Shown: positions 1,563-30,947 of the stretch, piece after piece | How positions within the stretch are numbered: the stretch's first letter is position 1 | Layout of the letters: each line of letters starts with the position of its first letter | Source of the DNA: Nannocystales bacterium | GTDB taxonomy: Bacteria > Myxococcota_A > Polyangia > Nannocystales > Nannocystaceae | Reading direction: 5' to 3' | Assembly: GCA_050633305.1 (NCBI GenBank) | Contig: JBOEGF010000036.1 | Location: forward strand, 64,001 to 128,000 | DNA: 64,000 bases | Translations under genes and position numbers: made by a program | The notes under the pieces: model-generated | Database searches by the model: none | Seen by the model: only the letters and a program-made list of their open reading frames with translations | What the model was told of the DNA's origin: nothing

Positions 1563-2870
1563 CTAGTCAGTCGGCGCTGGCTGGAGTGTCCTGCCATCAA
1601 GATCCAGGTACAGCTGCGCCGCGTCGTAGGGGCAACGTCGGGTGCCTCGGATCGTCCAAGGTTCGCGCATGCAGGTCTCGGCTCGTTGAGGCGCATCGCA
1701 GCAGGAGTACAGCGGGCACATCCAGCGAGCGGCTTCCTCCGATCGAAGCGACTGAACCAGGTGCGCCATCGAGCGAATGAGAAAAACCGCCTGCTCGCCC
1801 GGGGTCTCACGCCCTCCGGCAAAGACCTGCCCCTGGGCGTCCTCCATCGACGGCAAGGGAACCTCCTCGAAGAGCGGCCTGACGTCCAAGGATTGCTCCG
1901 GCGATTCGGGATCTGGCAACCGGTCCAGCGGGAACCGGCGCTCGCCGTTTCGGTTGCGCGCCAGGCTCAGGAGGGCGATCTCCTGGTACCATCTTAGGGC
2001 GACCAGGAGTGGGTCCTCGTCGCCTGCAGCGGCGTGGTGCTCGACGAACTCTTTCAGTGTCGCAGTGATCTGCGCCACCGTCCGATCGTAGGTCGCTGCT
2101 AGCGTGTGTCTCCGGCACCAGTCATAGACCTCCTCTCCCGACGGGTCTGTGCTGTTTTGGCCCATGTCGGAGAAACCATCCAGCAAGTTGAAGAGGTGCG
2201 GCCCTGGGGTCGGGTGTTGGAGGGCCCAATGGCACATTGCGATACGTTGCCGTGGGGTGTGGAGCCCGACCGTCGCCAAGATCCGATCAATCGCGACGTA
2301 CTCGAACGACGTCGATTCCAGGACGGGCTCGTCGTCGGCGAACAGCACCTGCAGCGCAACGGAGTACGCCTCCTTGATCTCCCAGGGGCCTACGCTGTGA
2401 TGCATGATCTCGCCAGAGATATTGTCGACGAACTTTGCCTTGGCCACCATCACTGGCTGCGACTCGGCGTCGATCGTCGCAGCTTCAAGGCAGTAGCCCT
2501 CGTAGGCCCACGGCGTCCCACTGCCCCAGGTCTCCCGGGGTTCCACCGCACGCCGAAGTCGAGGCTGAGCGAAGTACCATGGGTCATCTATGGCGGATGG
2601 ATCGTCTGTCAGTGGGAGCGTCACCGCCTCCCCCATGTGCCGAACTGCGCGCTTCGTCGCGTGGACCGAGTCGAGGAAATGAATGAAGTCGATCGCCCCG
2701 TACACCGAGCACAAGTCCTGCAAGAGGTGACCGTACTCGTGCATGAACGTCCACAGACCGTGGGGAAGAGGCTGTCCCGTATCTGGGTCCAGCACATCCT
2801 CGCGAAACCATATGTAGAACGCGCTCGGCCGGTAGTAGGAGCGCCCTGAGCTATCGTGGCGGATTGGCAT
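1563..2870 (-). CDS. HEXXH zincin-like protein with C-terminal Cys cluster
   Basis: TFMHEYGHLLQD; downstream EIKEAYS as possible third ligand; C-terminal CPLYSCC...C..EPW...CPY; ATG at 2870 preferred over 2948. Confidence 0.7.
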   Translation of the reverse strand: MPIRHDSSGRSYYRPSAFYIWFREDVLDPDTGQPLPHGLWTFMHEYGHLLQDLCSVYGAIDFIHFLDSVHATKRAVRHMGEAVTLPLTDDPSAIDDPWYFAQPRLRRAVEPRETWGSGTPWAYEGYCLEAATIDAESQPVMVAKAKFVDNISGEIMHHSVGPWEIKEAYSVALQVLFADDEPVLESTSFEYVAIDRILATVGLHTPRQRIAMCHWALQHPTPGPHLFNLLDGFSDMGQNSTDPSGEEVYDWCRRHTLAATYDRTVAQITATLKEFVEHHAAAGDEDPLLVALRWYQEIALLSLARNRNGERRFPLDRLPDPESPEQSLDVRPLFEEVPLPSMEDAQGQVFAGGRETPGEQAVFLIRSMAHLVQSLRSEEAARWMCPLYSCCDAPQRAETCMREPWTIRGTRRCPYDAAQLYLDLDGRTLQPAPTD

Positions 2871-3111
2871 CGTTCGACCTGTGACTGTGTTCGCGCACCC
2901 GCTGCACGCGGCGCGAGTCTCCAAGATACGCGAGGCGGGCCCCTTCATTCGCTATGTGGACCAGAATGGGCCGTTGGCCTGATATTGATCGGTCAGGCCC
3001 GCTCTCCAGCACATGGCGGCCTTCAGCAGCGTCAGCCTGGTTTGTTGGCAATGAGCGACGTTGGAGGCGCTCTGGCCCGGTTCAGCGTATCCTTCGCTCC
3101 TGCACTCGCTG

Positions 3112-3936
3112 ATGGACACGACAAATCTCCATTCCGAGCTCGAAGTGGTTCTTCGCGCTGGCACCCACCAGCTCGTCTTCATTGACGACGGTGGAGCCGG
3201 GCACCACACTATGGACCCCGATATCCTTGTTCAGGACCATCTTAGTTTCACCGCGGTCATTGTCCCAGCGTGCTCCTTTATCCCGTTGAACGACGCCTTC
3301 GTTTCGTGGCTGTCCGAGGTGCAGAAGGACGCCCCGTCCGTCACCGAGCTTCATGCCACAGCACTCATCAACCCGAAGCGCGGCCAGCCTTGGCGGGACG
3401 TCAAGGATGTGGACGTGCGAGCCGGGCATCTCCGGCGCGCCGCCGACGTTTTCCTCCCCCATGTGGAGACCGTCATTCACGCCCACATCGGCAAGGAGCA
3501 GTACGAATCTCTCCTTGCCTCGCATGCCGAGCAGGTGGATGGCCTCTACGACCATGTCAAGAAGGACCTCACGAAACACAAACATGGCCTCGAACTCGTG
3601 ACGCTGCAGGCGGTCGCAAAGCACGTGCAGAAGCGCGGGGTTCCTTCCGTAGTATTCGAGGATGAGGGGCGCTACAGGGTGAAGAACAAGGACGAATGCA
3701 CGGTGAAGTTCATGTTCGATCCCGTCGTTCCGATGTGGAGAGGTGCTGTTGTCTACCAGCCTTCGCACGCGTGGCCAGGGCTGCAGGTCGCAGACATGCT
3801 GGCAGTTGCATTCGCGCGCGAGTACGTCACCGCTCAACGGGTGCGGATTGGCAAGCACCCTCTCCCTTTCGATCGTGTTTGCAAGCGAATCCGCGAGCAG
3901 GTCGCCGAGAAGAAAGTCTTCGCCTTCGACGCCTGA
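3112..3936 (+). CDS. DUF3800-family protein (RNase H-like fold)
   Basis: Motifs VFIDDGG, TELHA, VFEDEG and GLQVADMLA match the DUF3800 pattern D(E/D)xG...ElH...lQxADxxA. Confidence 0.75.
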   Translation: MDTTNLHSELEVVLRAGTHQLVFIDDGGAGHHTMDPDILVQDHLSFTAVIVPACSFIPLNDAFVSWLSEVQKDAPSVTELHATALINPKRGQPWRDVKDVDVRAGHLRRAADVFLPHVETVIHAHIGKEQYESLLASHAEQVDGLYDHVKKDLTKHKHGLELVTLQAVAKHVQKRGVPSVVFEDEGRYRVKNKDECTVKFMFDPVVPMWRGAVVYQPSHAWPGLQVADMLAVAFAREYVTAQRVRIGKHPLPFDRVCKRIREQVAEKKVFAFDA

Positions 3937-4090
3937 TGTGTGGACACGCGGCCTGCCACTTTCCGTTCTGGGCGCAGAGCGCCCGGATGCCGGTCCGAGA
4001 TTGGGGCGGTCGCGGAGAAGGCCCGGGCGGTGCGAGCGCGTGCCCGTGTTGCCGGCCGAGTTCGTCTTGGCAATCTGCGGCTTGTCGATC

Positions 4091-4120
4091 TTGACGGTCC
4101 TGCGTGGGGATGGATATCTT
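4091..4120 (+). promoter_or_regulatory. Possible sigma70-type promoter for the 4208-7068 operon
   Basis: TTGACG-N18-TATCTT, about 90 bp upstream of the ATG at 4208. Confidence 0.3.
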
Positions 4121-4207
4121 GGCACCGTAACGCCCGTTGTACGTTTGCCTTGGCGGCATGTGCTCTTAGGCGGCCGCTCCATGAGCATCGGGAGTTTGTG
4201 AGGGCAG

Positions 4208-4975
4208 ATGGGCCACATCCGGCTTGGGAAACTTCCACGCACGAGACGCTGGGCAGAGGTCGTCGACCTCTTGGGCCTCGGTGCGGGCTCCGCTGCGGTC
4301 GCCGCCGCCACCCTCGACGCGGCCGAAGCGGACCTACGCGGCGCCCCTGAAGACCCCGCTGTCCTTCACGCTTTCTGGCTGCTGACGCAGCTCCCTGACG
4401 CGGCGCGTAGCAGCGACTTTGCCGGCGCACTTCGTGACATCGGGGTCCAGGTCGAGAGCGCGCCCACGGTCGCCGAGCTCGGCGCCGCGCTTACCCGGGC
4501 CATCGACCGGCACGCGCTCCAACAGCGCAACATGTCCGACCTCGGCGAGATGGCACAGCTTGCTGTCGTCCAGAGCCTGACGGGTCTGCTGCAAGCCCGC
4601 GTGCCGACGCTCTTCGGGACTACGCCCGACGACGTGCGCTCGGAGGTCGCCAAGCTCGCGACCGGAAAACAGTTTGGGATGCTCGCCAAGGAGTTCTTCG
4701 CCGGCTTCTCGCAGCGGTTCCTCACCTACTACACCAGCCGCGAGCTGCCCTCCCACGTCGGACGGGGCCGAGCGTTCCCGGAGCTGACGGACCACGAAGC
4801 GTTCAACCAGGCGCTCGACATCCATTGTCAGCAGGCGTCGCGGATCGTCGAGACCTTCGCGGGCACCTGGTACTCGAAGAGCCGATACGAGAAGACGCTA
4901 ACTCCCGAGCGCATGGCGGGGTTTGTCGGGTACGCGCTGGGCAAGATGCGGCGCGAGCTGAGGCGGGGGGGCTGA
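4208..4975 (+). CDS. Helical protein coupled to QueC-like gene; QatB-like partner with N-terminal Gly (MGHIRLG...)
   Basis: 255 aa ORF; GAGGG before ATG; stop overlaps the next start (TGATG at 4973-4977). Confidence 0.75.
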   Translation: MGHIRLGKLPRTRRWAEVVDLLGLGAGSAAVAAATLDAAEADLRGAPEDPAVLHAFWLLTQLPDAARSSDFAGALRDIGVQVESAPTVAELGAALTRAIDRHALQQRNMSDLGEMAQLAVVQSLTGLLQARVPTLFGTTPDDVRSEVAKLATGKQFGMLAKEFFAGFSQRFLTYYTSRELPSHVGRGRAFPELTDHEAFNQALDIHCQQASRIVETFAGTWYSKSRYEKTLTPERMAGFVGYALGKMRRELRRGG

Positions 4976-7068
4976 TGTCGTCGTCCCTGCCTCGGAGTGT
5001 GCGTCACGTCGCCTGTGGGAGCGCCGCTCGCAGCGCCCCCGAGGATGCGCTGCGCCTGAAGCTCCACGGGACGTCGCCGAGCTTCAGCGTCGACGTCGCG
5101 GGCCTCGACCAACAGCTGACGACTCGTGTCGCCCCGCGCTTCAGGGATCTCATCCGCCTCGCGTCCTACGTCCTCGTCGCAGACCAGGCGGTCACCCGTG
5201 GGGAAGAGGACTCCCTCGACCTGGGGAAGCGCTGGCGCCGCGAGTTCAAGTTCGTCGTCGGCGTCGAGGACCTCAACGTTTGGGACTGCGACGAGATGCG
5301 CGACGTTCTCGAGTCGACGCTGCATACCCTCACCGACGACTTCTACACGTTCGAGTTCGTGCCGCAGCTCGACTCCGAGCCTGAGCAGCTCAACTTCGGC
5401 GCCGTGGGCGACGACCCCTTCCTCCCCCTCGAAGGCTTCGCGTCGGTGCAGCTGTTCTCCGGTGGGATGGACTCGTTCACGGGGGCGGCCGAGGAGATCC
5501 TGGGCAGCGATCGAGACGTCATCCTCGTGAGTCACCGGTCGGCGACCAAGACTTGGAAGCTTCAGCGGGACCTGATCGACGACCTCCGCCAGCGAGCTCC
5601 GTCGCGCCGCATCCTCCACGTCGCTGTGAGCATGGTGAAGCATGCGAAGGAGCTTCGCCGCGAGCGAACCCAGCGGTCGAGGTCGTTCCTGTACGCCGCC
5701 CTGGCGGGGACGGTGGCCAACCTGGTGGGCCTCGACTTCATCCGATTCTACGAGAACGGGATCGTCGGCATGAACCTCCCTGTGCTACCGCAAGTCATCG
5801 GCACGCGGGCGACGAGGACAACCCATCCGGAGGTGCTGCGGGGCTTCTCAAAGATCCTCTCGCTCCTTGGCTCCCAGAGTATGCGGGTCGAGAACCCGTT
5901 CGAGTTCTTGAGCCGCGCCGAGGTGGCCGGGCGGTTGAACGGCGCCGGTGCCATCGACGTGCTGAGCAAGACCGTCAGCTGCGCGCACGTGCACAAGAGC
6001 AGCAAGATGCATCCGCACTGCGGCGTCTGCTCCCAGTGCGTGGACCGGCGCATCTCAATGCTGGCGGCCGGATTCGCCGAGCATGACCCTGCCGAAGGCT
6101 ACGCTGTGGACATCCTCCGCGGTCAGCATCCCACGGGCGAGGGCGACGTCCTGACCGAGCGCGACCGCACGATGATTGTCGGATACGTCCACGCCGCTGA
6201 CCGCTTCCGAGACCTCGCTTCGCCACTCGAGCTTCAGCACCGGTATCCCGAGGTCACCCGAGCGCTACTCGGCCTGACCGAGCGCTATGTCATCGACGCC
6301 GATGAGGCGCTCCGGCGTGTCTACGAGGTGCACAAGCGCCACGGTGATGGCGTCGGTAGGGCCGTCGAAACGCTCTTCGACTCGGACACGGTCAGGGCGC
6401 TGCGGAAGCCGAACGGCATCCCTGCTGACAGCCTCCCCGCGCTCTTGGGTGCGCGCGGCCTTGGCATGTCCGGATCCCATCAGCAGAAAGAGGAGGTGGC
6501 TCTAGAGATCGTGCCGGCAGATGCCGAGCATGTCTTCCGCCGGCAGGGGCAGAACTGGACGCTCAAGTACCGGGGCGGCAAGCCGCTGATCATGAAGCAC
6601 ACGAAGGGGCTGAACTACATCAGCTTCCTGTTCCGGCACCCGAGTGAGGAGCTGACTGCGTTCGCGCTGATCGACCTAGACGAGGGGCGTGAGGTCGGCC
6701 GGCACTCGCTGTCTACGTCGTTCTCGATCGACGCGAAGACGCTCAGCTCGGTGAAAGGCAAGATGCGGGAGCTCAAGTCCGCCCTCGCCGACGCGATCGA
6801 GTACTGCGACGACGCCGGAGCCGCTCGCATCCGGGCTGAGATCGAGACGCTTGAGGACTACGTGAGTCGGGAGACCGGGCTCGGGGGAAAGGTCCGGCGG
6901 GAGTCGCCGGACCGGAAGAGGGCGAGATCGTCGGTGTCCAATGCCATTACGCGCGCTATCGGCACGGTGCGCAAAGAGCACCCAGCCTTCGCCGACTACC
7001 TAAAGCGGCAGATCCAGACCGGGTTCTTTCTCCAGTATCGCGACGTCAGCACCCACTGGCTGTTGTAA
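4975..7068 (+). CDS. QatC-type QueC (7-cyano-7-deazaguanine synthase-like PP-loop ATPase) fused to a putative C-terminal DNA-binding domain
   Basis: PP-loop LFSGGMDS; ERTQRSRSFLY; YENGIVGMNLP; TRTTHP; Zn site SC...HCGVCSQC; C-terminal FRRQGQNWTL...KGLNYI...RARSSVSNAITRAI...HP..ADYL...IQTG. Confidence 0.85.
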   Translation: MSSSLPRSVRHVACGSAARSAPEDALRLKLHGTSPSFSVDVAGLDQQLTTRVAPRFRDLIRLASYVLVADQAVTRGEEDSLDLGKRWRREFKFVVGVEDLNVWDCDEMRDVLESTLHTLTDDFYTFEFVPQLDSEPEQLNFGAVGDDPFLPLEGFASVQLFSGGMDSFTGAAEEILGSDRDVILVSHRSATKTWKLQRDLIDDLRQRAPSRRILHVAVSMVKHAKELRRERTQRSRSFLYAALAGTVANLVGLDFIRFYENGIVGMNLPVLPQVIGTRATRTTHPEVLRGFSKILSLLGSQSMRVENPFEFLSRAEVAGRLNGAGAIDVLSKTVSCAHVHKSSKMHPHCGVCSQCVDRRISMLAAGFAEHDPAEGYAVDILRGQHPTGEGDVLTERDRTMIVGYVHAADRFRDLASPLELQHRYPEVTRALLGLTERYVIDADEALRRVYEVHKRHGDGVGRAVETLFDSDTVRALRKPNGIPADSLPALLGARGLGMSGSHQQKEEVALEIVPADAEHVFRRQGQNWTLKYRGGKPLIMKHTKGLNYISFLFRHPSEELTAFALIDLDEGREVGRHSLSTSFSIDAKTLSSVKGKMRELKSALADAIEYCDDAGAARIRAEIETLEDYVSRETGLGGKVRRESPDRKRARSSVSNAITRAIGTVRKEHPAFADYLKRQIQTGFFLQYRDVSTHWLL

Positions 7069-7180
7069 GAGCTGGCTCTCGACGACGGCCGGCAGAGCGA
7101 GGTGAATTCCGAGCGCTGTTTTTCGCACTCGGAGGGATCCGTTTGCATGCAGGCTGTGTACGGGCCGAAAAAACTATGCC

Positions 7181-7222
7181 GCTACGCCTGACGTAGCGCC
7201 TGCAACGCGGCCCGTAGCGCCT
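7181..7222. repeat. Two tandem 21-bp units, each an inverted repeat GC(T/A)ACG-N5-CGTAGC; operator-like
   Basis: GCTACG cctga CGTAGC gcct / GCAACG cggcc CGTAGC gcct. Confidence 0.7.
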
Positions 7223-7269
7223 CCGGGTTGAGCCATGTCGGCTCGCAAATACCTGACCCGGAGGTTCAC

Positions 7270-7773
7270 ATGAAGCCCCAAGAAAAAACTGAGCGGAGCT
7301 GCCGAAGGTGTGGCGGACTCGTCGGCACCCGATGCGCTGTCCACGCCCACGATAAGCACACGCGCGCCAAATCCGTGGCCCGCGATCGCGTGATGACCGT
7401 CTGCCCGTGCCGCGCCGAACTCGATCAGAAGACGAGTGGGGAGCGGGGCCTGGAGCTGTGCGCGGCCACGACGGTCAGCGACGCTCGGAGTGCAGCTCAT
7501 AGGCCTCGGGTCCAGCGGCCGCCATCGCAACGGCTTGCGCACGCCGTCCGTCTTGTTCTGGGCCGTCGCACCTTTGACCGTGTCCTCGGCCCCACGATGG
7601 CGGATGTGTATCTTGAGTGGGTCGAGGCCCATTCTTCCGGAGATCTGGTCGAAGCGAAGCGCGTGAGAATTCGGTCGGCTTTCTGCTTGTCTTGGGCCGC
7701 GGTGGCGTATCTGTTGGGACGCGTCGCGGTGGTCATGGACGACTTTCGGAAGAACTTCGGTCCGAAGCGTTGA
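7270..7773 (+). CDS. Hypothetical protein with N-terminal Cys/His cluster
   Basis: GGAGGT RBS before ATG at 7270; CRRC, CAVH and CPC motifs. Confidence 0.45.
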   Translation: MKPQEKTERSCRRCGGLVGTRCAVHAHDKHTRAKSVARDRVMTVCPCRAELDQKTSGERGLELCAATTVSDARSAAHRPRVQRPPSQRLAHAVRLVLGRRTFDRVLGPTMADVYLEWVEAHSSGDLVEAKRVRIRSAFCLSWAAVAYLLGRVAVVMDDFRKNFGPKR

Positions 7774-7873
7774 GGTCGATTGAACGGGGAAGCCGCTCTC
7801 GCTGGAGCTCTGCTTCGTACTGTTTTGGGGACAGCGACGATGGTTCCTCGGTCCCCCGCGTCCGCGTCCGCGT

Positions 7874-8128
7874 TCAGATTTTTTTGCGATATTCGTTTGC
7901 CACGACCTCAACAATCATCCCGCCGGGCGCATCCACTCCGATTGAGAGAAGAAGGGTCGTCAGGAGGCCGTCAACCCTTCTTTGAGCATCGTTCGAAAGC
8001 GACGCATACTTCGCGAAATCCCCTCCGGGGATCAGCTCCTCGATGTCAGTCGCGAGAGCCCCTTTCCTCAGCTGTTCAGGCTCCGAAAGGCTGCGATATG
8101 CGTCAGCGATCTTCTTGCGGCGTCCCAT
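7874..8128 (-). CDS. Small hypothetical protein
   Basis: ORF 7874..8143; protein-like from MGRRKKIADAY. Confidence 0.45.
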   Translation of the reverse strand: MGRRKKIADAYRSLSEPEQLRKGALATDIEELIPGGDFAKYASLSNDAQRRVDGLLTTLLLSIGVDAPGGMIVEVVANEYRKKI

Positions 8129-8437
8129 ACCCGATCTAAACACACTGTTTCACCTCTTCCAACGGCAGGCCATGGCTCATGGCCAAGGGGCTGGCTGGAC
8201 GGGGGTGGACGGAGGTTGGGGTCCTCGGCTTTTTGGGTTTGGGGACCTGGCGCTTTGGTGCTCAGGTGTTCGGCCGGTGCTATGGTTCCGACGCTCGTGT
8301 CAATGGCACCACACGGCGCGCACTTCAGGAGCGTGTTTGAGCAGCCCGAGTGTGCCACGGTAGAGCTGCGGCCCGCGCCCTCGACCGAGCACTTCTCCGG
8401 AAGCGACTCGTCAACGCGGAAGGCTGAGCCCGGGAGC

Positions 8438-8560
8438 CTCGGCCGCCCCGAGGCCTGCACCAACGACCTGTTCAAGGAGAAGTGCGACGCTGCGTGCGAG
8501 CACGTGTTCGAGAGCTACTGCGGCGACGGCCCAACCAAGTGCGGAGCGGCATCAGCGTGA
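8438..8560 (+). pseudogene. hsdR: Relic of the extreme C-terminus of a type I restriction subunit HsdR
   Basis: PEACTNDLFKEKCDAACEHVFESYCGDG resembles the HsdR C-terminal pattern LPxxYTxxLFxxKCxxVxxHVxESY; stop overlaps the next GTG. Confidence 0.5.
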
Positions 8561-9603
8561 CGGACGAGTACAAGCGCGAGCTACACATCCCCCTGCCACA
8601 AACCGACACTGGGAAGGTGCAGATGGTCTGCCCGCGCGGCGACTGCGAGCCAGGTCGGTTCTTCCTCGGCGACGCTCCTAGCGAACGACCCGAAGCCGGC
8701 AACAGCACTCCGACACGCCGCGAACCAGGGACCGACGGCGTGACTTGCCCGTATTGCGGCAAGGACGATTCTGATGATGCGTTTCGCCACCCGGACGACG
8801 CTGCGTATCTCGAGAAGGCCATCGATCACGGTGTTGAAGAGGTTGCGCACGAGATGATTGGGGAACTGCTCGACAACCACTTCACCCAGCCTTTCAAGCG
8901 AATGGGACGGGCGTCTAGGCGCAGCGGGTTCAGTGTGACCGTGGAGTCCCGACCGTATCGTCAGCAGCCGAAGTCCCCACCCCGGCCGCCGGCTCGGGCG
9001 GACCTACCGCGCAACGTGACCTGTACCGCATGCGCGCGCGCGTACGGAGTCTTCGCTATCGCCCTCTTCTGTCCCGACTGCGGCTCTTCGAACGTCCTGG
9101 TCCACTTCGCCCGCGAGCGCCGGCTATGCGAGGATGAACTTGCCAGCGCTCGCGAGACGTCCGATCGTGAAAGAGCTCTGCGAAAGCTGGGTAACGCCCA
9201 CGAAGACGCTGTTTCAGCCACCGAGGCGTATCTCAAGTCTATCTATGCCCTCGTCATCGGCGTTCGAAGACCTGCCGATGGGGAGAAGAAGCTAACCAAG
9301 GTCGGGAACGCCTTCCAGAGCATCGAAAGAGGCAAGAAGCTCTTTGCGCCGCTTGGGGTCGATCTCTACGGGATGCTCATGGAGGGGGAACTCAAGTTTC
9401 TGGACGCTTCGATGGCGAAGAGGCACGTGGTCACGCACAACCTCGGAGTCGTCGACAAGAAGCACGTAGAACGAACCGGCCAGGGGAAGGCCGGGGAGCT
9501 GATCAGCCTCACAGAACGGGACGTTCGGCGTCACCTCGAACTGGTCGAGCGGGTCATCTCCGACCTTGAGCGGAGTGTTCCGGAGTTGCAGCCGTCGCCC
9601 TAA
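8557..9603 (+). CDS. Zn-ribbon protein with C-terminal HEPN-like domain
   Basis: CPRGDC, CPYC, CTAC and CPDC; RX4H motif RHVVTH; GTG start overlapping the upstream TGA. Confidence 0.7.
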   Translation: MTDEYKRELHIPLPQTDTGKVQMVCPRGDCEPGRFFLGDAPSERPEAGNSTPTRREPGTDGVTCPYCGKDDSDDAFRHPDDAAYLEKAIDHGVEEVAHEMIGELLDNHFTQPFKRMGRASRRSGFSVTVESRPYRQQPKSPPRPPARADLPRNVTCTACARAYGVFAIALFCPDCGSSNVLVHFARERRLCEDELASARETSDRERALRKLGNAHEDAVSATEAYLKSIYALVIGVRRPADGEKKLTKVGNAFQSIERGKKLFAPLGVDLYGMLMEGELKFLDASMAKRHVVTHNLGVVDKKHVERTGQGKAGELISLTERDVRRHLELVERVISDLERSVPELQPSP

Positions 9604-10054: not shown

Positions 10055-13000
10055 ATGGAGATCCCTGACATCGATTTCACGCGAATAAGGTCACTCGGCC
10101 CCGGCGGGCAGCGCGATGGGTACGAGCAGTTTATCTGCGAACAGGTCGCTCAAGAGCAGCCCGCGCCGGACGCCAAGTTTGTGTCTCTCCACGGAGCGGG
10201 CGGTGACGGCGGGGTCGAGTGTTACTGGACTCTCGCGGACGGCACCGAGTACGGCTGGCAGGCCAAGTATTGGACGGACCACAGCGCCGTCGACAAAGGG
10301 CAGCTCGATAAGTCCGTCAAGGCTGCTCTCGAGCAGCACCCGAAGCTGGCGCAGTACACGATCTCCATCCCCGCCGACCCGACTGGTCGCACCGGGCGGA
10401 AGGCCAAGTCTCTCCTCGCGAAGATCCAGGATCCGAAGGGATGGCTCGACGGCTGGAAGGCCATGGCTGCGCTACGCGGTATGTCTGTCGTTTTCGAGGT
10501 CGAATGGAGAACGAACATCGTCACGCGGCTGACCCGTCTCGACGTCTCCGGAACCCAGCGGCGCTACTGGTTCGACGTCGATGTGCTCGCCGAGCGGTGG
10601 TGGGACGACCGGAAGCAAGACGCGGTCTCAGCCGCTAGGCCCCGGTACATGCCGGAGCTCAATATCGAGGTGCCCGCCGCACGGGCCATAGCCGCGCTCT
10701 GCTCGGACGACGAGTGGTGGATGGTCGTTCTCAGTCAGATTGAGACGGTCAAAGAGGCCGCCAGTTCGCTCCGCTACGCCGATGAGACGGTGCTGGCCGC
10801 GGATCTGGCCGCAGCGGGTGACGCAGTTGCAAGAGTTGTGGACGCACTTTCCGCGTGGCACGCATCCCGCGGCACGACAGCGATTGACGATCTCGCCCAA
10901 GTGCTCGAAGAGTCCTTAAACAGCGTCAGCGACCAGGAGGCCCTCGAGGTTGCGGCGATGGACGCGAAGTACGCCGACGCTACCTGGGATACTCCTGGCT
11001 GGCGGCAGTTTCAGGCCGAGTACATGGTCTGTTTTCCGGCGGCAGCCGTCGATGGGTTACGGGAACTCGGTAAGAAACTCACGGAGACCTCCGAGGTTCT
11101 ACTGAGCCCGACTGGAAGGCTCGCAGGAGCCCAGGTCGCACTCATCACCGGTCCGGCCGGAATCGGCAAGACGTACCTCGCCCTGGACTCAGTCGTCCGC
11201 CGACTAGGCCAGGGGCGCCCAAGCGTCATGATGCACGGTCGATGGTTCAGCGACCACGAGCCGCTAGCCCATCTCCGCGGTGTACTCAGCATGCCGCCGG
11301 ACCTGAGCAGCGAAGATGCGATCGCGCTCCTGGATCAGCATGCCCGTGTTGTGGGCGCCACAACCCTCTTGGTCGTCGACGCGCTCAACGACACCCGCCC
11401 ACGGTCGCTCTGGCGGGACAACCTCGAACGGATCATCGCCACGATCGGCAGGTATCCGCACGTCCGGCTTCTGCTGACGGCGCGCACCCACTATCTCGCC
11501 CACGTTCTCCCGCCCGGATTGACGGTCGCGCAGTTTGAACACACCGGCTTTGAAGGAGTCGAGTTCGAAGCTGTTAGCGAGTACGCCGCTTTTTACGGCC
11601 TCGAGCCCCCGACGTCCCCGCCGATTCACGGCGAGTTTAACAACCCGCTGTATCTGCGTCTTGTATGCGAGGCTCTTCAGGCTACCGGCCGCTCGTCTCT
11701 TGAGCAGGCCAATATGGGCCTCGACGAGCTGACGAAGATGGTCCTCGACGACGCCAACGCTCGTATCAGCGACCGTATCGATGCGTCCCCGTCGGACCGG
11801 GTCGTTCAGCGTTCCATGCATGCCCTGGCCACCGCGCTTGCGGACGGCGGAGGCGGTCCGCTCAATCGAGCAGATGCACAGTTCGTGCTCACCCCGATCT
11901 GGTCGGATCGGAGCGCGGAAAAGTCGCTGCTCGACGCGCTCATCGCCCAGGGCCTCGTCGAGGAAGACGTCATTTCGGACGGTAGCACCTACGGCGCCGA
12001 CGTTGTCGCCATTACCTTCGAGCGCATTGGACACCACCTCATCGTGTCCGATGCCCTCTCCGGTGTAACCGATGCGGACGGCGTCCGTGCGGAACTCGGC
12101 TCACGCCTTGGGCGGCTCATCGGTCTCGGTGGGATAGTCGATATCGGCGTCCTCGAGGCGACCTCCGTCGTCGTCGCCGAACGCCTCGGACTTGAGCTAA
12201 CCGAGTTCGGGGCTGAAATCGGGGACGATGACGCTCTTGCCACGGCAGTCATCGCAGGCATTGGATGGCGTACGGCGGACTCCATCAGCGACGAGACCCG
12301 TCTCATCGTGACGAACGCGCTGCGACGCGAAACCACCCGCAAGGGCGCGCTCACGATGCTGTTTCGGCTCGCCTCACGAGCTGGGCATGGTCTGAACGGC
12401 GAGTTCCTCCACGGGCTCCTCGGCCGAATGAGTCTGGGTGAGCGTGACGAGTTTCTTCCCGCTTGGCTCCACAGGACCCACGGCACTAGCGGAGGGGTCG
12501 ATCGGCTCATCCGCTGGGCGCGGGAGAAACCATTGGATCTGGTCGGTGCGGACACAACTCGGCTGTGGGTGACCGCGCTGCTATGGATGGCCGGGGCCAG
12601 CGACCGACGCGTCCGCGAGCCCGCGACCATCGCCGCCGCCCGCCTCCTCGCTCGTCACCCGGACCAGGCGGCAGGGCTGTTGGAGCGGTTCACCGTGGTG
12701 AACGACGAGTGGGTCGTTGAACGCTCCCTTGAGGTGGCCTACTCGGCGCTCTTGAGGAGCGGCAGCACCAACGACTGGGCAGCCGCCGCAGGCGTGGTCT
12801 GGAACCGCATCTTTTCCGTGCCCATGGACGTGACTCCGAATGCTGCGGTTCGTGACGCCGCCCGCAGCATCCTCGAAGCAGCGAATGAACGTGGGGCGCT
12901 CCCCGCTACCGTGACCGTTGCGCAGTTTCGGCCGCCGTACACCAGCGACTGGCCTCCTACTTGGCCCACTGAAGCCGACATTGGGAGCTATGACAACGTC

Positions 13001-14224
13001 GGCTACCCGAAGCTTGTGTACTCGACCACCAGCGATGACTTCTTCACCTACAAGGTTAGTTCCGAACTCAAGGACCGTCCCGGTATCGACGTGGACGCAG
13101 CAGCCAGATGGGTCGTGCAGGAAGTCATCCGCCTTGGGTACCGGAGTGACAGGCATGCCGAGTTCGACGGCTATGTGATGAGGACCTACGGCGGCGGCCG
13201 TTCCAAGCCTGCTTGGGTTGAACGGATCGGCAAGAAATACCAGTGGATTGCGCTCAACCGGCTCATCGGCATGGTCTCCGACCACGTACCGAAGACCCCT
13301 AGTTCGTGGGACCCCCCGGCCCCGCCTGTCCCCGGCCCTGTCTCCGGCAGGTGCCGGCAGGTCGACCCGACAGTCCTCGAGTTCCCGCCTACTGACGCCG
13401 CGGAAAGGTCGTGGGTGCCTGGCTACGATTGGGCACCCGCAAGCGGCAATACCGACGCCGAATGGATCGTTGACGACACTGACCTGCCCACCATCGCCGT
13501 AACCGACGCCGTCTTCGACGGCCGTCAGTTCGTCGTCCTTTCCGGCACCTACGACTGGACCAATGTCACCGACACGGGCAAGCCCGCCCGCCGCATATGG
13601 ATCCATCTCGTTCCCCACCTCGTCGCTACCCCGGATCTACCCGCCGCTCTTGGCGAGGTCGAGGGTCGCGACCTCCTCGGCCACGAGCTGTCCCGTTGCC
13701 CCCTGATGCCCGACGGGTACGTCGGCGAGTATCCGTACGGCCATCACCATGGTGAGAGCATTCACGTAAAGCAACACGAGTGGCGAGAACCGCTTGGGGT
13801 CCCGACGAGCCCGGCTGCGTGGGACATCCTCGGCGAATACGAGTATGCCCCCGGCAATCAGCACAGAATTTCCCTCGATGCTCCCGCCCCTGAGTTCTTC
13901 GGTCCGGTACCCGGCGACCTCCGCTGGAACGGGCGCAATGGCTGGAGCGACAAGAACGACCAGATCATCGCCGTTGTTCGCCACACGAACAACACGGGCC
14001 AGAACGAGCTCCTCATCGACGCCATCTGGCTCGAGCAGTGGCTTGTTGGCGAAAAGAAGTCCCTCATCTGGGTGGAGAGCACGGCCAAGGAAGCCTTCCG
14101 GGGGCTCGGTGGTAAGACCCACCCCGGACGCCTCACTCGCTCCCAAGTGCACTCGTGGGCACCCGGCAGGGACGCACAGACCTCAGCACCATTCTGGGAT
14201 CGTCTTCCAGCACGCGGAGAGTAG
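10055..14224 (+). CDS. Avs2-like antiviral STAND NTPase with N-terminal Mrr/PD-(D/E)xK-like nuclease
   Basis: N-terminal GDGGVE...GWQAKY; Walker A GPAGIGKT; Walker B LLVVDALND; NPLYL; C-terminal ERIGKKYQWIAL; 1389 aa. Confidence 0.8.
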   Translation: MEIPDIDFTRIRSLGPGGQRDGYEQFICEQVAQEQPAPDAKFVSLHGAGGDGGVECYWTLADGTEYGWQAKYWTDHSAVDKGQLDKSVKAALEQHPKLAQYTISIPADPTGRTGRKAKSLLAKIQDPKGWLDGWKAMAALRGMSVVFEVEWRTNIVTRLTRLDVSGTQRRYWFDVDVLAERWWDDRKQDAVSAARPRYMPELNIEVPAARAIAALCSDDEWWMVVLSQIETVKEAASSLRYADETVLAADLAAAGDAVARVVDALSAWHASRGTTAIDDLAQVLEESLNSVSDQEALEVAAMDAKYADATWDTPGWRQFQAEYMVCFPAAAVDGLRELGKKLTETSEVLLSPTGRLAGAQVALITGPAGIGKTYLALDSVVRRLGQGRPSVMMHGRWFSDHEPLAHLRGVLSMPPDLSSEDAIALLDQHARVVGATTLLVVDALNDTRPRSLWRDNLERIIATIGRYPHVRLLLTARTHYLAHVLPPGLTVAQFEHTGFEGVEFEAVSEYAAFYGLEPPTSPPIHGEFNNPLYLRLVCEALQATGRSSLEQANMGLDELTKMVLDDANARISDRIDASPSDRVVQRSMHALATALADGGGGPLNRADAQFVLTPIWSDRSAEKSLLDALIAQGLVEEDVISDGSTYGADVVAITFERIGHHLIVSDALSGVTDADGVRAELGSRLGRLIGLGGIVDIGVLEATSVVVAERLGLELTEFGAEIGDDDALATAVIAGIGWRTADSISDETRLIVTNALRRETTRKGALTMLFRLASRAGHGLNGEFLHGLLGRMSLGERDEFLPAWLHRTHGTSGGVDRLIRWAREKPLDLVGADTTRLWVTALLWMAGASDRRVREPATIAAARLLARHPDQAAGLLERFTVVNDEWVVERSLEVAYSALLRSGSTNDWAAAAGVVWNRIFSVPMDVTPNAAVRDAARSILEAANERGALPATVTVAQFRPPYTSDWPPTWPTEADIGSYDNVGYPKLVYSTTSDDFFTYKVSSELKDRPGIDVDAAARWVVQEVIRLGYRSDRHAEFDGYVMRTYGGGRSKPAWVERIGKKYQWIALNRLIGMVSDHVPKTPSSWDPPAPPVPGPVSGRCRQVDPTVLEFPPTDAAERSWVPGYDWAPASGNTDAEWIVDDTDLPTIAVTDAVFDGRQFVVLSGTYDWTNVTDTGKPARRIWIHLVPHLVATPDLPAALGEVEGRDLLGHELSRCPLMPDGYVGEYPYGHHHGESIHVKQHEWREPLGVPTSPAAWDILGEYEYAPGNQHRISLDAPAPEFFGPVPGDLRWNGRNGWSDKNDQIIAVVRHTNNTGQNELLIDAIWLEQWLVGEKKSLIWVESTAKEAFRGLGGKTHPGRLTRSQVHSWAPGRDAQTSAPFWDRLPARGE

Positions 14225-14409: not shown

Positions 14410-17400
14410 TCAAACCTCCGCGGCGCCGGAGGCCACGCGCTCGATCACGTGATCGAGGTTTATCGCCCGCACAGAGCCTCCGGCAAAGTCCGCGGGCGCC
14501 TTTCCTTGTGGCAACTCGTCGAGGTCGAGATAGTCCTCCGGACGTGCGGTGAGGACGACGATCTGGATCTTGTCCGCGGACCTGCGCAGCATCTTGTGGA
14601 ACCACGCCGCGCGGCTGCGGTGGGTTTGGGCCAAGTGGTCGTCGAGGATGAGCATGGAGCCCAGTTGCTCGGCGATACACAGCCGGAGGATGGTGGCGAG
14701 TTGATCCTGGGTCCCGGCGGAGAGGTCGCCAAAAGAACGGGCGACGCCGGCAACCTGCACCGCGTCGGTCGCCAAATGGGCGTTGAGGCGGATTGAGTCG
14801 TATCGGTCCTGGGTCAGGCTCTTGAAGCGCTCGCCGACTTGGCTGCCCAGGGCCTGTCCGATATGGGCGCCATCCTCGTTTTCCACATCGCGCAGGGTCT
14901 TGGCCAGCAAGCGATAGGCTTCGTAGTCCAACTCGATCTCGTGTTCTCGGATCCGCGCCTGGTCTCGAGCCTCTCGGTGGGAGGTGAGCGTGTCCCGCGT
15001 AACTTCGCCGCCCACTTGCTCGAACGCGCCCTCTGCGGTGCGCACGTCGCCGCGGAGTCGGTCGGCCAGTCCATCAGCCTCGACGTGGCTGGCGGTGGTG
15101 GCTTCGAGCTCGGCATCGGTGGCCGGGCTCTCGGGGCGTGGGAGTTTGGCGAGGGCTTCGGCCAGCTCGCAGGCGGCGTGTCTGGCGGCATCGAGCCCCA
15201 TCGCCTCGACGTGCCCGGTTTCCACGTCGAGGCGCGACCGCGCAGCCACGAGGGCTTCGCCAGCGTTCTTTGTGAGGGTCGCAGCGAGGATGCCTGCGTC
15301 GCGTTCCTGCGCCAGCGCGGTCGTGGCCTGCTCGACGGCCTTGTGCGCAGCGGCGACTTCCGCGAGGCCGGCTTCGGCCAGGGAATCGCGTTCTTGGCGG
15401 GCTTCGGCTCGGTCCGTGTTGGCGTGCTGGAGTTGAGCCTCGATCCGAGAAGCGGCCTCGCGGGGCTCGGCGTCGAGACCCTCGGTGCTAGCTTGTAGGG
15501 CGGTCGCGGCGGCAGCCTCAGTTCGTTCGGCGGCCTCCAGGCTGGCAGCCAGTTGGGCTTCCTTCTCTCGGCTGGACGCCAACGCCTTCTGGGCTTGCCG
15601 CAGTGTGGTGTCGGCCGCTGCGGTGTCTGCCTCGATAGTATCCTCCCAGCCGCCCGGTTTCGAAGCGGCTTCCAGTTCGAGTTTGGGGAGCGTCTCGCCC
15701 CCCATGCTGGCTTCCCGCTCGGCGACCTTGGCTGACAGCCGCTCCACCGCGCTGGCTGTTTCGGCGTGAGCGGCAGCGTCGTTGAGGGAGCTCGCGGCCT
15801 CTGCTTCGTGTTGTCGCAGCTGTTGTGCCCGGGCTTGGGACTGGCGCACCACCTCGCCGAGGGCGACGAGATCGGGAGCGCCGGTGCTCGTTAGAGTGGG
15901 GACTCCCTCGTGCTCCCAGCGGGTTTGTAGGGCGGCGGCGAGTTTGTGGTCGTCAGGGCTTCCGGCGCTCACCGTCAACTCGGCGACGTTCTCGAGGATC
16001 AGGGCGATGGTGCGGGACGCGTCGATGGGGGCGCTTGCGTCGGCTACCGCTTGCTGAGGGCCCCCGTCGATCGCGACGTGCAGCGTCAAGTCGGTCATTG
16101 GCCTGACTGCGACAGTGAGGCCCACGCCGACCTTGGCCAGAGCCACGTCTAGTTCATTTCGGAGAGCCGTGAGCGCCTGGACCTCGTCGGCAGTCGGGCA
16201 GGCAGTGGCCTTGATCTGGTCTCGAAGGTTCTTGGCTTCGGCCTGAGATTGCCTAGCCCTGACGAGGAGGGCGGCACGCTTCTCTGCCGCGGAGCGCGCG
16301 TCCCCAAGGGATTTGTGTGCCTCTCTTAGCCGGGCCAGCTGGCAGAGCCCTCGGTGGGTCTCCAGATTCTCGTTGGCCTCTCGCTCCCGGGCTACCAGGG
16401 CATGCCGTTCGGCTTGAGCGGTGGCGACTGAGTCGTGGAGCACTGAGGTGCGCTCACGGGCTTTACTCAGTTCCGTTTCGCACACTCGGGCAGCCTGCGC
16501 CGACTTGAGGGCGCTGTTGAGCTTCTCGATCCGGTGCTCGCACTGGGCGAGCTTGCTCTCGACTTTAGCCTTGTTGAGTGCGTGCTGCTGGTGCGAGCTC
16601 TGGCTCTTGGCGCGCTGTAGGGCGCTCGTGGCTTCTTGCAAGGTGGTCTCGGCCGCGGATATCGAAGCTGCGCAAGCCTGGTCGTTGGCCTGGGCGGCCT
16701 GTGAGGCGCGGTCGAGTTCGGCGATCGCCGCGGCGTCGGTTGCCAGTCCCGCCACGGCCTGCTCAATCTCCGAGACCTTAGCTGCTGCGACGGCCAGCCT
16801 GTCCTCGGCGTCCAGCATGGCCTTGGTCTGATCAAGGCGCGCCCGAACGACGGTGACCAGAGCTGCGGCTTCTTTGCTGGTGGCGCGGGCGAGCGTGAGC
16901 TCTGACGTGAGCGCCTCCAAACGCTCACGGGCGCGTTCGGTCTCTTCCTCCTGAAGTTCGAGAATCGCGATCTGGTGCGCCAGCCCGTTGATCTTCTCTG
17001 TGATCTGCACAAACGGGGAGTTTTTGCCCTTCTTCTTACTTCCCCCGGGCGTGTAGGCTTCGTTCACCCTCCCCTGCGCTTCAGTAAGCACCTGCTTGAA
17101 CAGAGGGTCTTGCGCAAGCGCCTCAAGTGCCAGTCCCAGCTGCGCTCGAGCGGTGTCGTCCGCGTCCTTCAACAGGCTCAGACCGAGCAGTTGGGCAGCG
17201 CCTACCTGCTCGCCGAGCAGGGCATGACTCAAGAAACTCTCGGGCAAACCGCGAGCACCACCCTTGCCCCCGGGAGGCTTGATCCCCCAGCGAAGCAGGG
17301 TCCGAAGTTGACCATCGACCTTGCGAGCGGTGGCCTCCGACGAGTAGGCGGTGTCATCCTTCGAAAAGCGAAGCTCGGACGCGCCGGGATCCCCGTAGTT

Positions 17401-17655
17401 GCGAGTGACTCGCCAGAACTTGTTGGTGTCTGTGGCGAAGGTGAGCTTGACGGTAGGCTCGCCACCGGCCCACGAGCGAAGCGACGACCGGGCCGAAGAG
17501 CTGTGAGGGAGTAGTAGTCCGGCCCGGACCGCATGGGCCAGCGTGGACTTTCCGATATCGTTCTCGCCAAAGAGAATATTCAGCCCCGGACAGAACTCCA
17601 GCTCCGCGTGCTGCACACACTTGAAGTCGTCGACTGTCAGCCGTAGGAGTCTCAT
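14410..17655 (-). CDS. SbcC/Rad50-like (YhaN-type) coiled-coil ABC ATPase
   Basis: Walker A GENDIGKS; long coiled coil; signature LSAGTQDQL; Walker B LILDD. Confidence 0.88.
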   Translation of the reverse strand: MRLLRLTVDDFKCVQHAELEFCPGLNILFGENDIGKSTLAHAVRAGLLLPHSSSARSSLRSWAGGEPTVKLTFATDTNKFWRVTRNYGDPGASELRFSKDDTAYSSEATARKVDGQLRTLLRWGIKPPGGKGGARGLPESFLSHALLGEQVGAAQLLGLSLLKDADDTARAQLGLALEALAQDPLFKQVLTEAQGRVNEAYTPGGSKKKGKNSPFVQITEKINGLAHQIAILELQEEETERARERLEALTSELTLARATSKEAAALVTVVRARLDQTKAMLDAEDRLAVAAAKVSEIEQAVAGLATDAAAIAELDRASQAAQANDQACAASISAAETTLQEATSALQRAKSQSSHQQHALNKAKVESKLAQCEHRIEKLNSALKSAQAARVCETELSKARERTSVLHDSVATAQAERHALVAREREANENLETHRGLCQLARLREAHKSLGDARSAAEKRAALLVRARQSQAEAKNLRDQIKATACPTADEVQALTALRNELDVALAKVGVGLTVAVRPMTDLTLHVAIDGGPQQAVADASAPIDASRTIALILENVAELTVSAGSPDDHKLAAALQTRWEHEGVPTLTSTGAPDLVALGEVVRQSQARAQQLRQHEAEAASSLNDAAAHAETASAVERLSAKVAEREASMGGETLPKLELEAASKPGGWEDTIEADTAAADTTLRQAQKALASSREKEAQLAASLEAAERTEAAAATALQASTEGLDAEPREAASRIEAQLQHANTDRAEARQERDSLAEAGLAEVAAAHKAVEQATTALAQERDAGILAATLTKNAGEALVAARSRLDVETGHVEAMGLDAARHAACELAEALAKLPRPESPATDAELEATTASHVEADGLADRLRGDVRTAEGAFEQVGGEVTRDTLTSHREARDQARIREHEIELDYEAYRLLAKTLRDVENEDGAHIGQALGSQVGERFKSLTQDRYDSIRLNAHLATDAVQVAGVARSFGDLSAGTQDQLATILRLCIAEQLGSMLILDDHLAQTHRSRAAWFHKMLRRSADKIQIVVLTARPEDYLDLDELPQGKAPADFAGGSVRAINLDHVIERVASGAAEV

Positions 17656-18782: not shown

Positions 18783-18786
18783 GTCT

Positions 18787-28530: not shown

Positions 28531-28608
28531 CCTCCCCGGTCTCACTGTCTTGGGAGGGCCCGCAGATGTTTCAGCCCGCGGATCGGGTGTCGCTGGCATG
28601 CATGTCTC

Positions 28609-30863: not shown

Positions 30864-30947
30864 GGGACGTCGTCGCCGAATGTCGCGACCGCGGTGACCT
30901 CTGGTCGTCCGCGCCTTCACGTTTTCTCGTGTCTCCAAGGACTCTCC

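Follow-up and report, generated by a model that had tools for sequence, protein, structure and literature searches.

A QatBC-like gene pair with a probable C-terminal output domain in the regulator slot of prophages

Results

A coupled gene pair encoding a helical partner and a QatC-like enzyme

The window analyzed here, a 64,000-nucleotide stretch of a Nannocystales genome, contains two coupled genes, A and B, with the following features, given in window coordinates.

4091..4120, + strand: candidate sigma70-like promoter of A-B, TTGACG-18-TATCTT, a consensus match only
4208..4975, + strand: gene A, QatB-fold helical partner, 255 aa, with an N-terminal tail of ~12 residues, MGH[IVQT]RLGxLPxTxxW
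4211..4213, + strand: Gly2 codon of A, the presumed acceptor once Met is removed, judged by conservation across loci
4973..4977, + strand: TGATG stop-start overlap in the sequence, A TGA and B ATG
4975..7068, + strand: gene B, QatC-like QueC-family PP-loop enzyme with a C-terminal output domain, 697 aa, assigned by profiles and model
5458..5475, + strand: SGGMDS pyrophosphate-binding loop of B, residues 162-167; S162/G163/G164/D166 in 119/120 homologues
5812..5829, + strand: TRTTHP of B, residues 280-285; T280/T282 aligned with QatC T278/T280
5980..6051, + strand: Zn site of B, C336-x12-C349-G-x-C352-xx-C355-xx-RR; four Cys in 120/120 homologues
6517..7065, + strand: C-terminal "t1" tail of B, with beta strands, helices, a coiled-coil insert and a putative recognition helix
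7181..7218, no strand: two tandem 17-bp imperfect palindromes, period 21, GCTACG-N5-CGTAGC, a putative tail-binding site
7270..7430, + strand: apparently decayed first gene of a prophage early operon, a small Zn-ribbon ORF, where homology to the related locus L004 stops

A sequence-only reading of this DNA had described a 255-aa protein coupled through TGATG to a QueC-like enzyme with an SGGxDS loop, Zn cysteines and ENG, NLP and TRTTHP motifs; coordinates and overlap were reproduced, and all the motifs were located, with ENG at residue 260 and NLP at 267. The A/B junctions overlap or abut in most relatives. A begins with MGHIRLG and its first helix starts at residue 13, and the Thr pair of B is conserved in 120/120 (T282) and 116/120 (T280) homologues. 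The promoter candidate is the one site found in positions 3900-7500, against 0.3 in shuffles, and hexamers resembling it occur at the same place in L004, whose copy of the Zn-ribbon ORF gives weak Zn-ribbon/Com matches (E about 0.002-0.02). Against L004 and L002 the B core has a dN/dS of 0.15; that of the t1 tail is 0.19-0.21. A public-run contig covers window positions 2500-9000 with one difference and may come from the source sample.

A is present in 128/129 related loci and B in 120/129, a pairing that is not due to chance; many loci are near-identical, so that such counts overstate independence. There are 1730 clusters at 50% identity, and distribution within the phylum is sporadic (6/301 genomes). 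The sequence-only reading had also noted that genes of known systems are missing, and this was borne out. Searches by tblastn with four canonical QatA and four QatD proteins found neither qatA nor qatD in the window or the 129 related loci, and Pfam and PADLOC searches of 28 selected long window ORFs found no TatD, queD/E/F, tgt or CD-NTase. The host genome, 92% complete, yielded no KAP NTPase, and its TatD homologues are located on other contigs. Among neighbor families of A-B, que/tgt families do not recur, and the recurring families include no CD-NTase or Cap10 TGT.

A modeled QatB fold and a near-invariant Gly2 in the partner

Sequence searches with A gave no match in Pfam, PADLOC, NCBIfam, PHROGs or PDB, zero matches in 50,697 isolated phage records and one match among plasmids, and PADLOC 2.0 has no model for it. 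The structural model of A aligned with QatB (9y01_A) at Z 12.2 and rmsd 4.2, with 210/215 residues aligned, the next unrelated fold reaching Z 4.4. This likeness surfaced only on realigning Foldseek's top 1000: QatB ranked 41 with E 1.8, yet had the highest TM-score shown. A wide VIA structure search of cluster representatives reached a best Z of 6.1 and did not list QatB, and similarity at the sequence level is weak (HHalign probability 36%). By structural modeling, A is a remote QatB homologue. Because A has the QatB fold, the core is a divergent QatBC and the partner is not of a new kind; the earlier suspicion of a non-Qat output is supported, this output being visible as the C-terminal domain of B.

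Gly2, proposed as the substrate after Met removal, is present in 124/125 scorable loci. The sole exception, L057, carries G2D, and no B follows within 6.8 kb downstream. An [MLV]G start is found in 132 of the best 150 library matches to A, and a natural A-B-phosphoesterase fusion, P0125, starts with MHP and is without Gly2.

B as a QatC-type enzyme and its predicted complex with A

B matches PADLOC QatC with E 5e-51 and the NCBIfam QatC equivalog with 191 bits, under the 280 cut-off, and its model matches QatC (9y01_B) with a TM-score of 0.75 by target and E 2e-19. The QatC-type features found in B are the fold, SGGxDS, DxxxxR..WxR, RxRxF, ExG, TxT-HP and the Zn site. That B might be an ordinary preQ0 synthase, as its weak match to Pfam QueC could suggest, is vanishingly improbable, since the canonical motifs YxQxHxxE, VPxRN and YPDC of the ~220-aa QueC (motifs from PMC13329287) are absent from B, the host genome encodes its own QueD and, elsewhere, a full-length QueC, a queC deletion is not rescued by QatC (PMC13329287) and occurrence is sporadic in the phylum. 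The sequence-only reading was right to see more in B than a QueC.

The A-B complex was predicted with a score of 0.94 versus 0.00 for the best control, although QatBC structures are already solved and the score may come from likeness to them; 116/157 solved pairs and 2/215 mismatched pairs reached the mark. The runs were concordant in at least 96% of contacts, with a partner pLDDT of at least 91. Residues 2-11 of A were modeled in contact with B residues 232, 264-282, 337-338 and 352-354, comprising the active-site loop and Zn region, so that the N-terminus is predicted where the earlier reading had looked for it, again with a possible contribution from likeness to solved QatBC.

The predicted interface is large, about 190 contacts, which would suit a different arrangement: A, as an anti-activator or antitoxin, would hold B inactive simply by binding to it, release would come from ATP or a metabolite, and any covalent product would be irrelevant. 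The P0125 fusion without Gly2 points the same way, and the Qat papers report no in vitro reconstitution of QatC turnover. We nevertheless consider such an arrangement highly doubtful, as Gly2 hardly varies from clade to clade, nor do the PP-loop, the Thr pair and the Zn ligands, and G2D abolishes Qat defense (PMC13279940, PMC13639016).

Another proposal concerns the chemistry and fits either biological role: B would ligate host-made 7-carboxy-7-deazaguanine to Gly2 of A (NDG). It draws on Cap9, for which bioRxiv 2025.04.06.647259 gives a precedent of deazaguanine ligation to a partner N-terminal Gly, on an NDG peptide of QatB detected by LC-MS/MS, not by intact mass (PMC13639016, section 9), and on the host QueC and QueD together with the conserved Gly2. 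Against it, QatC was inactive with CDG in vitro (PMC13376578, PMC13639016), with no pyrophosphatase activity on CDG, no CDG in crystals and no adduct by intact mass (PMC13376578, PMC13279940, PMC13639016); QatC T278/T280 replace the CDG-binding Tyr/Asp (PMC13279940), and B likewise has T280/T282 where the CDG-reading Tyr/Asp (YxDC) would stand, with no recurring que/tgt families beside A-B. We regard the NDG product as possible and hold it tentatively. The sequence-only reading had taken deazaguanine attachment by QatC as reported; the LC-MS/MS peptide agrees with this and the biochemical results and the Thr pair do not; the evidence on deazaguanylation by QatC is divided. Three 2026 structure papers leave the QatC substrate, the trigger and the QatBC effect route open.

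A swappable C-terminal tail on B

The sequence-only reading overlooked an appendage of ~180 aa on B, at about aa 515-697. The t1 tail is also found on non-QueC proteins occupying the same prophage slot, and the window copy is 53% identical to the resident regulator of L004. Its structural neighbors are the C-termini of regulator, STAND, TPR and hydrolase proteins. In the QueC-family protein of L061 the tail is instead Trans_reg_C (E 6e-9) and is 64% identical to a non-QueC slot occupant. The t4 tail class matches Trans_reg_C. The window t1 tail has no winged-helix match in Pfam, PHROG or PDB, its profile gives coiled-coil matches only in PDB, and its similarity to the Trans_reg_C-type tail is weak (HHalign probability 10%); a viral fold search with B returned QueC-like cores only. 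We regard the t1 tail as a probable DNA-binding regulator domain.

Well-supported branches of a quick tree force at least four tail switches for t0 and at least three for t1, and the swap position is always the same. A clade with an REase tail has the same MGH partner upstream (PF18742 in 112/120 matches seeded from this clade), and further effector tails are SEFIR/TIR, DUF4062, EAD7 and metallophosphoesterase; one canonical QatC-TatD fusion was also seen. Judged by sequence, the output slot at the end of B can be swapped: temperate phages have winged-helix-like domains there, and REase, TIR or phosphoesterase domains are found elsewhere.

Covariation of tail and tandem palindrome

A generalized t1 palindrome (score of at least 15/16) was found in 16/16 QueC+t1 and 5/7 non-QueC+t1 elements, hence in 21/23 elements with the same tail, the other two non-QueC elements falling below threshold, versus 0/91 elements with other tails and 5/1500 random windows. 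The motifs were defined post hoc on sequences already viewed, and the generalized form was adopted after the strict t1 motif had missed all non-QueC t1 elements (0/7). For t0, at least two copies of GTCAC[AG] were found in 14/14 and 36/46 loci, the motif being missing from 10/46, and in 0/2 t0-like non-QueC controls; at the two-copy threshold the strict t2 and t4 motifs were found in only 1/3 and 1/2 loci. Where the early operon is on the far side, the site lies 126-133 nt before HTH_17 in 26/26 loci with a gene call and behind B in 0/18 with DNA; the 26 loci with this inversion probably represent a single lineage. The palindrome is kept in L004, although the DNA immediately upstream has diverged. 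Positions 7181-7218 are thus a putative binding site of the tail.

A-B in the place of prophage regulators

A mobile-element marker is present in 26/49 GTDB loci, and the 80 viral loci contain a serine recombinase (51), DUF2924 (50) and HTH_17 (50), in IMG/VR sampling that favors prophages. ImmA/IrrE (PF06114) and LexA (PF01726+PF00717) genes occupy the slot of A-B in sister elements, and other occupants are Trans_reg_C, an Rrf2-like HTH and a sigma54 activator with TGGCAC-N5-TTGC after it. Either cassette can be found in elements whose two flanks are 91-97% identical (L213 versus L221 and L214). Among elements chosen solely by their downstream gene and with at least 4 kb upstream, an ImmA/LexA-type (ImmA/S24) protease was found in 0/24 with A-B versus 45/69 without, and its partner gene G1, which has no named family and a PHROG match of unknown function, in 0/24 versus 53/69. 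LexA is present solely as its DNA-binding domain in 42/80 viral A loci, and the S24 peptidase in 1/80. A-B takes the place of standard prophage regulators in many prophages; replacement is not obligatory, as L001, L002 and L004 retain LexA, G1 and the resident regulator next to A-B.

The window copy adjoins DUF3800, an Avs2-like gene and a DrmD-like helicase, an arrangement shared by related strains. With local profiles, no F25 gene was detected in the host and HTH_17 gave one weak match, elsewhere in the host. In the window, A-B is part of a prophage remnant that lies inside a defense island and has kept the site and the decayed first gene but lost the early operon.

This setting could also be explained by a stand-alone antiphage cassette inserted in frame into a prophage regulator gene; the tail would then serve as an autoregulator or constitutive regulator without need of the chemistry, and defense by QatBC would follow a route of its own. 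QatBC alone defends against lambda (PMC13279940), the sister clade bears REase and TIR tails, the window copy stands beside the DUF3800, Avs2-like and DrmD-like genes, as in related strains, and both cassettes coexist in L004. Such an insertion is nonetheless unlikely in our view: ImmA/S24 and G1 are gone from 24/24 control-selected A-B prophages with no other visible input left, and regulator-like tails were swapped repeatedly onto the core, always at the same position.

Discussion

We think it rather probable that A-B is a QatBC-type signaling module whose output is the domain on the C-terminus of B, and in which a regulator of the prophage early operon is gated by N-terminal ligation; we infer the DNA binding, the regulation and the adduct. 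A would lose Met1 and then bind B, the Gly2 of A lying in the active site. On arrival of a trigger or first substrate, possibly a deazaguanine, B would adenylate the substrate and ligate it to the A N-terminus, altering the conformation or oligomeric state of A-B and so switching the tail. For temperate phages and integrative elements we picture this tail as a regulator that would bind DNA, and most likely activate, at tandem sites about 50-200 nt before an early operon of an excisionase-like HTH_17 or sigma factor followed by recombination and replication genes, and A-B would substitute for LexA- or ImmA-controlled input. Lineages with a nuclease, TIR or phosphoesterase tail would probably use the module as a defense system. 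The window copy would be of the regulator type. The tail could instead act independently of the ligation chemistry.

Since A-B replaces damage-sensing control genes in many prophages, tagging may decide when a virus switches on. For the wider proposition the chances seem evenly balanced: in a widespread family of temperate phages, QatBC-type N-terminal conjugation would replace LexA/ImmA proteolysis as the early-gene switch, QatBC being a general sensor-ligase platform with an activator as output in prophages and a nuclease or TIR in defense. If the regulator reading is true, the input to the lysis-lysogeny decision would be covalent protein-small-molecule ligation, not repressor cleavage, and this input would be common to phage regulation and antiphage defense. 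The REase- and TIR-tailed clades are separate two-gene defense candidates. With an output domain on the enzyme and a candidate DNA site, a promoter reporter could read QatC-type activity and screen triggers and substrates. In the mostly open-access main texts searched, no account turned up of a QatC with a DNA-binding or REase domain attached, or of QatBC in prophage regulation; the neighborhood table S2 of PMC13329287 may list such proteins.

A-B shares with the qatABCD core (PDB 9y01/9y02, 9zee, 9vlk) a QatB-fold partner with Gly2, coupled genes, and a QatC-type QueC that has the extensions, the Thr pair and the Zn site. A 1:1 complex with the tail of the partner at the active site is likewise predicted, perhaps through likeness to the solved structures. 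It differs in being without qatA and qatD, in a B that scores under the NCBIfam QatC cut-off, in a partner that starts with MGHxRLG and a tail of ~12 residues rather than the MGTS and 30-90 residues of QatB, in forming a separate clade (SH-aLRT 98, quick tree), and in an output domain fused to the enzyme and a frequent position in the prophage regulator slot. Like Cap9-CdnD-Cap10 of type IV CBASS, A-B has a QueC-family enzyme, there acting on a partner N-terminal Gly, but no CD-NTase or TGT-like gene was seen with A-B, the CDG-binding Tyr/Asp is missing, A is QatB-like and B has 697 aa versus about 185 for Cap9. With the LexA/CI and ImmA-ImmR switches of prophages and ICEs, and with FseA-like activators of excisionase promoters, A-B shares the locus and apparently the early promoter, whereas its input would be a PP-loop ligase with a protein substrate and not a protease, the S24 peptidase being absent with A-B. 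Compared with OmpR/PhoB and one-component regulators, A-B has a QatC-like input domain and its window t1 tail is without a winged-helix profile match, but one tail class is Trans_reg_C and the sites are repeated with a 21-22 bp period.

A divergent QatBC core

The two genes, A and B, are joined by a TGATG overlap between the end of A and the start of B, as read from the sequence alone, and one contig of a public sequencing run spans the region. The features around them in the window are as follows.

1563-2948 (-), HExxH-motif protein with no family match, flanking A-B
3061-3936 (+), DUF3800 protein, flanking A-B
4208-4975 (+), A, 255 aa, N-terminus MGHIRLG
4975-7068 (+), B, 697 aa, QatC-like
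7181-7218, two 17-bp imperfect palindromes with a period of 21 bp, a putative tail site of a kind found, at a period of 20-22 bp, behind genes with a t1 tail (the C-terminal tail class of the window's B)
8482-9603 (+), Zn-ribbon protein with a weak PDC-M14A match, flanking A-B

B contains the SGGMDS, ENG, NLP and TRTTHP motifs and four Zn cysteines, as the sequence-only reading had described. It matched QatC in PADLOC (E 5e-51) and solved QatC chains (E 2e-27), and its NCBIfam QatC score was 191 bits, below the 280-bit cut-off. None of the family libraries searched had a match for A, whose model (pLDDT 84) aligned with QatB 9y01_A over 210/215 residues (Z 12.2, rmsd 4.2; next unrelated chain, Z 4.4), and the model of B resembled QatC (TM 0.75 by target). 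These models make the A-B core a divergent QatBC. When B 8-495 was modelled together with A 2-255, ATP and Zn, the predicted complex scored 0.94, and the best of three controls 0.00, with contact agreement of at least 96% and partner pLDDT of at least 91; the complex-score mark was reached by 116/157 solved pairs and 2/215 mismatched pairs. Residues 2-11 of A were modelled in contact with the B loop 264-282, T232 and the Zn region, which sets the N-terminus against the active-site loop of B, but since QatBC structures already exist, the prediction shows likeness to them rather than binding.

Neither the window nor any of 129 related loci gave a match to canonical QatA or QatD (four query proteins of each), in agreement with the module having been described as lacking both. 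The host genome (92% complete) encodes canonical QueC and QueD, and no KAP NTPase was found in it. The family is large, with 1730 clusters at 50%, but sporadic (6/301 genomes of the phylum); a quick tree built from 71 cores separates it from six canonical QatC proteins with SH-aLRT 98. Values of dN/dS against the related loci L004 and L002, averaged over both branches, were 0.12 for A, 0.15 for the B core and 0.19-0.21 for the B tail.

Gly2 of the partner and its likely chemistry

Of 125 scorable loci, 124 keep Gly2, expected to be invariant among partner homologs; the sole exception (L057, G2D) is without B in the 6.8 kb downstream. The MGH motif sat in one search pattern, and a pattern-free library search therefore matters here: 132 of its 150 best matches start with [MLV]G, and among the remaining 18, five contain [MLV]GH further in and are probably miscalled at the start, most others look truncated, and one, P0125, begins MHP. 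P0125 is a single-chain A-B-metallophosphoesterase fusion of 1079 aa without Gly2.

The QatC Thr pair is retained in the B family (T280 in 116/120, T282 in 120/120) and stands where QueC and Cap9 have the Tyr/Asp that read 7-carboxy-7-deazaguanine (CDG). Two reports describe QatC as inactive with CDG and its reaction as unresolved (PMC13279940, PMC13376578); in a third, a QatB peptide modified with NDG, the proposed deazaguanine adduct on Gly2, was detected by LC-MS/MS yet was absent by intact mass (PMC13639016). QatC did not complement queC, and qatA/qatD adjoin only about one-third of the QatC cluster, the remainder being left undescribed, in the parts covered of a fourth (PMC13329287). Of the Gly2 deazaguanylation first proposed, N-terminal ligation at A Gly2 can be inferred with good reason; a deazaguanine adduct is possible but, given the Thr pair and the inactivity with CDG, not the default reading.

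The swappable B tail, a probable output

The 103 tails following the core in loci L001-L129 were of classes t0 (46, ending GYRLNP), t1 (43), t2 (3), t3 (2) and t4 (2; Trans_reg_C, E 6e-9), with seven singletons (some truncated). Tail t1 was present in 104 of the 120 closest proteins. The classes are patchy on the quick tree, and close relatives of L055 bear four different short tails. When a distant member was used as the seed, 112/120 matches carried a DpnII-MboI REase tail, and wherever metagenome loci of this clade extend far enough upstream, they have an MGHER[IVT]G partner there, L309 excepted. Single cases of SEFIR/TIR, DUF4062, EAD7 or metallophosphoesterase tails occur, and one canonical QatC carries TatD fused at the same position. 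The t1 fold matched no solved winged helix; among Atlas models, the closest to it are the C-terminal parts of regulator, STAND, TPR and hydrolase proteins. By comparison of these sequences, the B tail is swappable and probably the output.

The REase clade (PF18742; L295:7001-9645, L303-L312, P0272-P0391) forms a large set of two-gene A plus QatC-like-REase loci, a candidate defence system. The natural QatC-TatD (QatD) fusion (L296:3018-5147, 709 aa) belongs to a Bradyrhizobium plasmid qat operon. Another QueC-like variant (L301:3435-6579, Rhizobium plasmid) is preceded by a small gene that, as annotated, lacks Gly2; an HTH-ImmA gene and DUF3800 come after it.

A prophage regulator slot

On one side of A-B in 80 IMG/VR loci lies a module with a serine recombinase (51 loci) and DUF2924 (50). 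On the other is an early operon whose first gene is excisionase-like with HTH_17 (50), or which starts with a small gene (11) and a sigma factor (13); AAA_24, helicase, nuclease and primase genes come next. An integrase, recombinase or HTH_17-like gene was present in 26/49 GTDB loci. In 160 control loci chosen by downstream gene alone (the best 80 of 581 plus the best 80 of 172), the slot held modular proteins whose HTH-like C-termini vary: among them are Trans_reg_C and Rrf2-like types, as well as a sigma54 activator with a TGGCAC-N5-TTGC site behind it. The t1 tail also occurs in seven non-QueC occupants.

Among the 93 controls with at least 4 kb upstream, G1, the partner gene (~395 aa) of the standard prophage regulatory cassette, was found in 0/24 with A-B and 53/69 without, and an ImmA or S24 peptidase in 0/24 and 45/69, respectively. 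LexA beside A-B is often only a 77-aa DNA-binding domain. L213, which carries A-B, is 91-97% identical on both flanks to L221 or L214, which carry LexA-G1-regulator; identity restarts directly after the B stop against L214, which shares the t1 tail, and only at the downstream gene against L221, which has a different tail, indicating that tail and promoter region changed together. The exceptions are the window's closest relatives, L001, L002 and L004, in which G1 and a resident t1 regulator are kept before A-B. That A-B is an independent defence cassette with a constitutive tail, the main rival explanation, we consider unlikely.

The standard cassette of these prophages (L261:3113-4303, L161:4418-5362, L229:4544-5677) consists of G1 and a Zn-ribbon-containing protein whose HTH tail varies, with LexA or HTH+ImmA above them; it belongs to no named family and appears to be a prophage regulatory system in itself, so far undescribed. 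At L267:2663-5855, a 33-residue A remnant precedes a sigma54 activator in the slot, and a sigma54-type promoter lies before the early operon.

A candidate site that tracks tail type

With a generalised palindrome pattern defined after inspecting the sequences, a score of at least 15/16 was reached by 16/16 QueC+t1 and 5/7 non-QueC+t1 control elements, 0/91 with other tails and 5/1500 random host windows. Elements with t0 bear repeated GTCAC[AG] (14/14 controls, 36/46 loci overall), spaced mostly 21-22 and 53-54 nt, and both t0-like non-QueC controls lack the repeats. Tail-site covariation of this kind could arise from linkage alone, but in a lineage whose early operon is on the other strand at a distance of 3-4 kb, it is before HTH_17 that the site lies, at 126-133 nt (26/26 with a gene call, 2 uncalled; the loci are close kin and represent roughly one event), and behind B in 0/18 loci with DNA there.

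The window copy

Identity to L004 (85%) is limited to 4185-7422, which holds a promoter candidate, A, B, the palindrome site and the first part of a Zn-ribbon gene; this gene leads on to replication genes in L004 and looks decayed in the window. Judged from its sequence, the window A-B is a prophage regulatory fragment inside a defence island. The genes flanking the pair are arranged alike in related strains from ~2941 onward.

The decayed ORF runs through into a helical segment (7500-7773, +) without a database match, which we take to resemble domains beside padR genes. A 1389-aa Avs2-like STAND ATPase (10055-14224, +) matched PADLOC at E 2e-259 and scored 560 bits in NCBIfam, under the 1000 cut-off. 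A possible defence operon (14410-21763, -) encodes a Rad50/SMC-like ATPase, an Mre11-like phosphoesterase and, over two ORFs (20549-21763 and 18787-20484, -), a DrmD-like SNF2 helicase that is perhaps broken. Further genes at 25664-40512, 48332-52746 and 58070-63626 are those of a two-component system accompanied by heavy-metal RND efflux and P-type ATPase genes, transposase-like genes and F1 ATP synthase alpha/beta genes, which give the wider window the look of an accessory island.

Proposed role and relation to qatABCD

Folds, conservation, tail swapping, slot, mutual exclusion and site covariation are shown by the computed comparisons. Beyond them, we propose that Met1 would be removed from A, that a trigger-dependent ligation onto Gly2 would switch the B tail, and that the switched tail would activate the early promoter of the prophage; this ligation-switch model of early-promoter control seems to us moderately probable. 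Repression of the early promoter by the tail would be the less probable alternative. Activation is favored because a sigma54 activator is among the sister occupants, and sigma54 activators act as activators, and because a weak -35-like position is either overlapped by the sites or lies downstream of them.

A search of mostly open-access main texts, with term look-ups in Qat papers, found no account of fused QatC outputs or of a prophage role, and we give an even chance to this being a categorically new role for a QatBC-type core. Compared with qatABCD, the A-B core is of a known kind, yet it comes without qatA, qatD and the MGTS tail, and B falls under the NCBIfam QatC cut-off.
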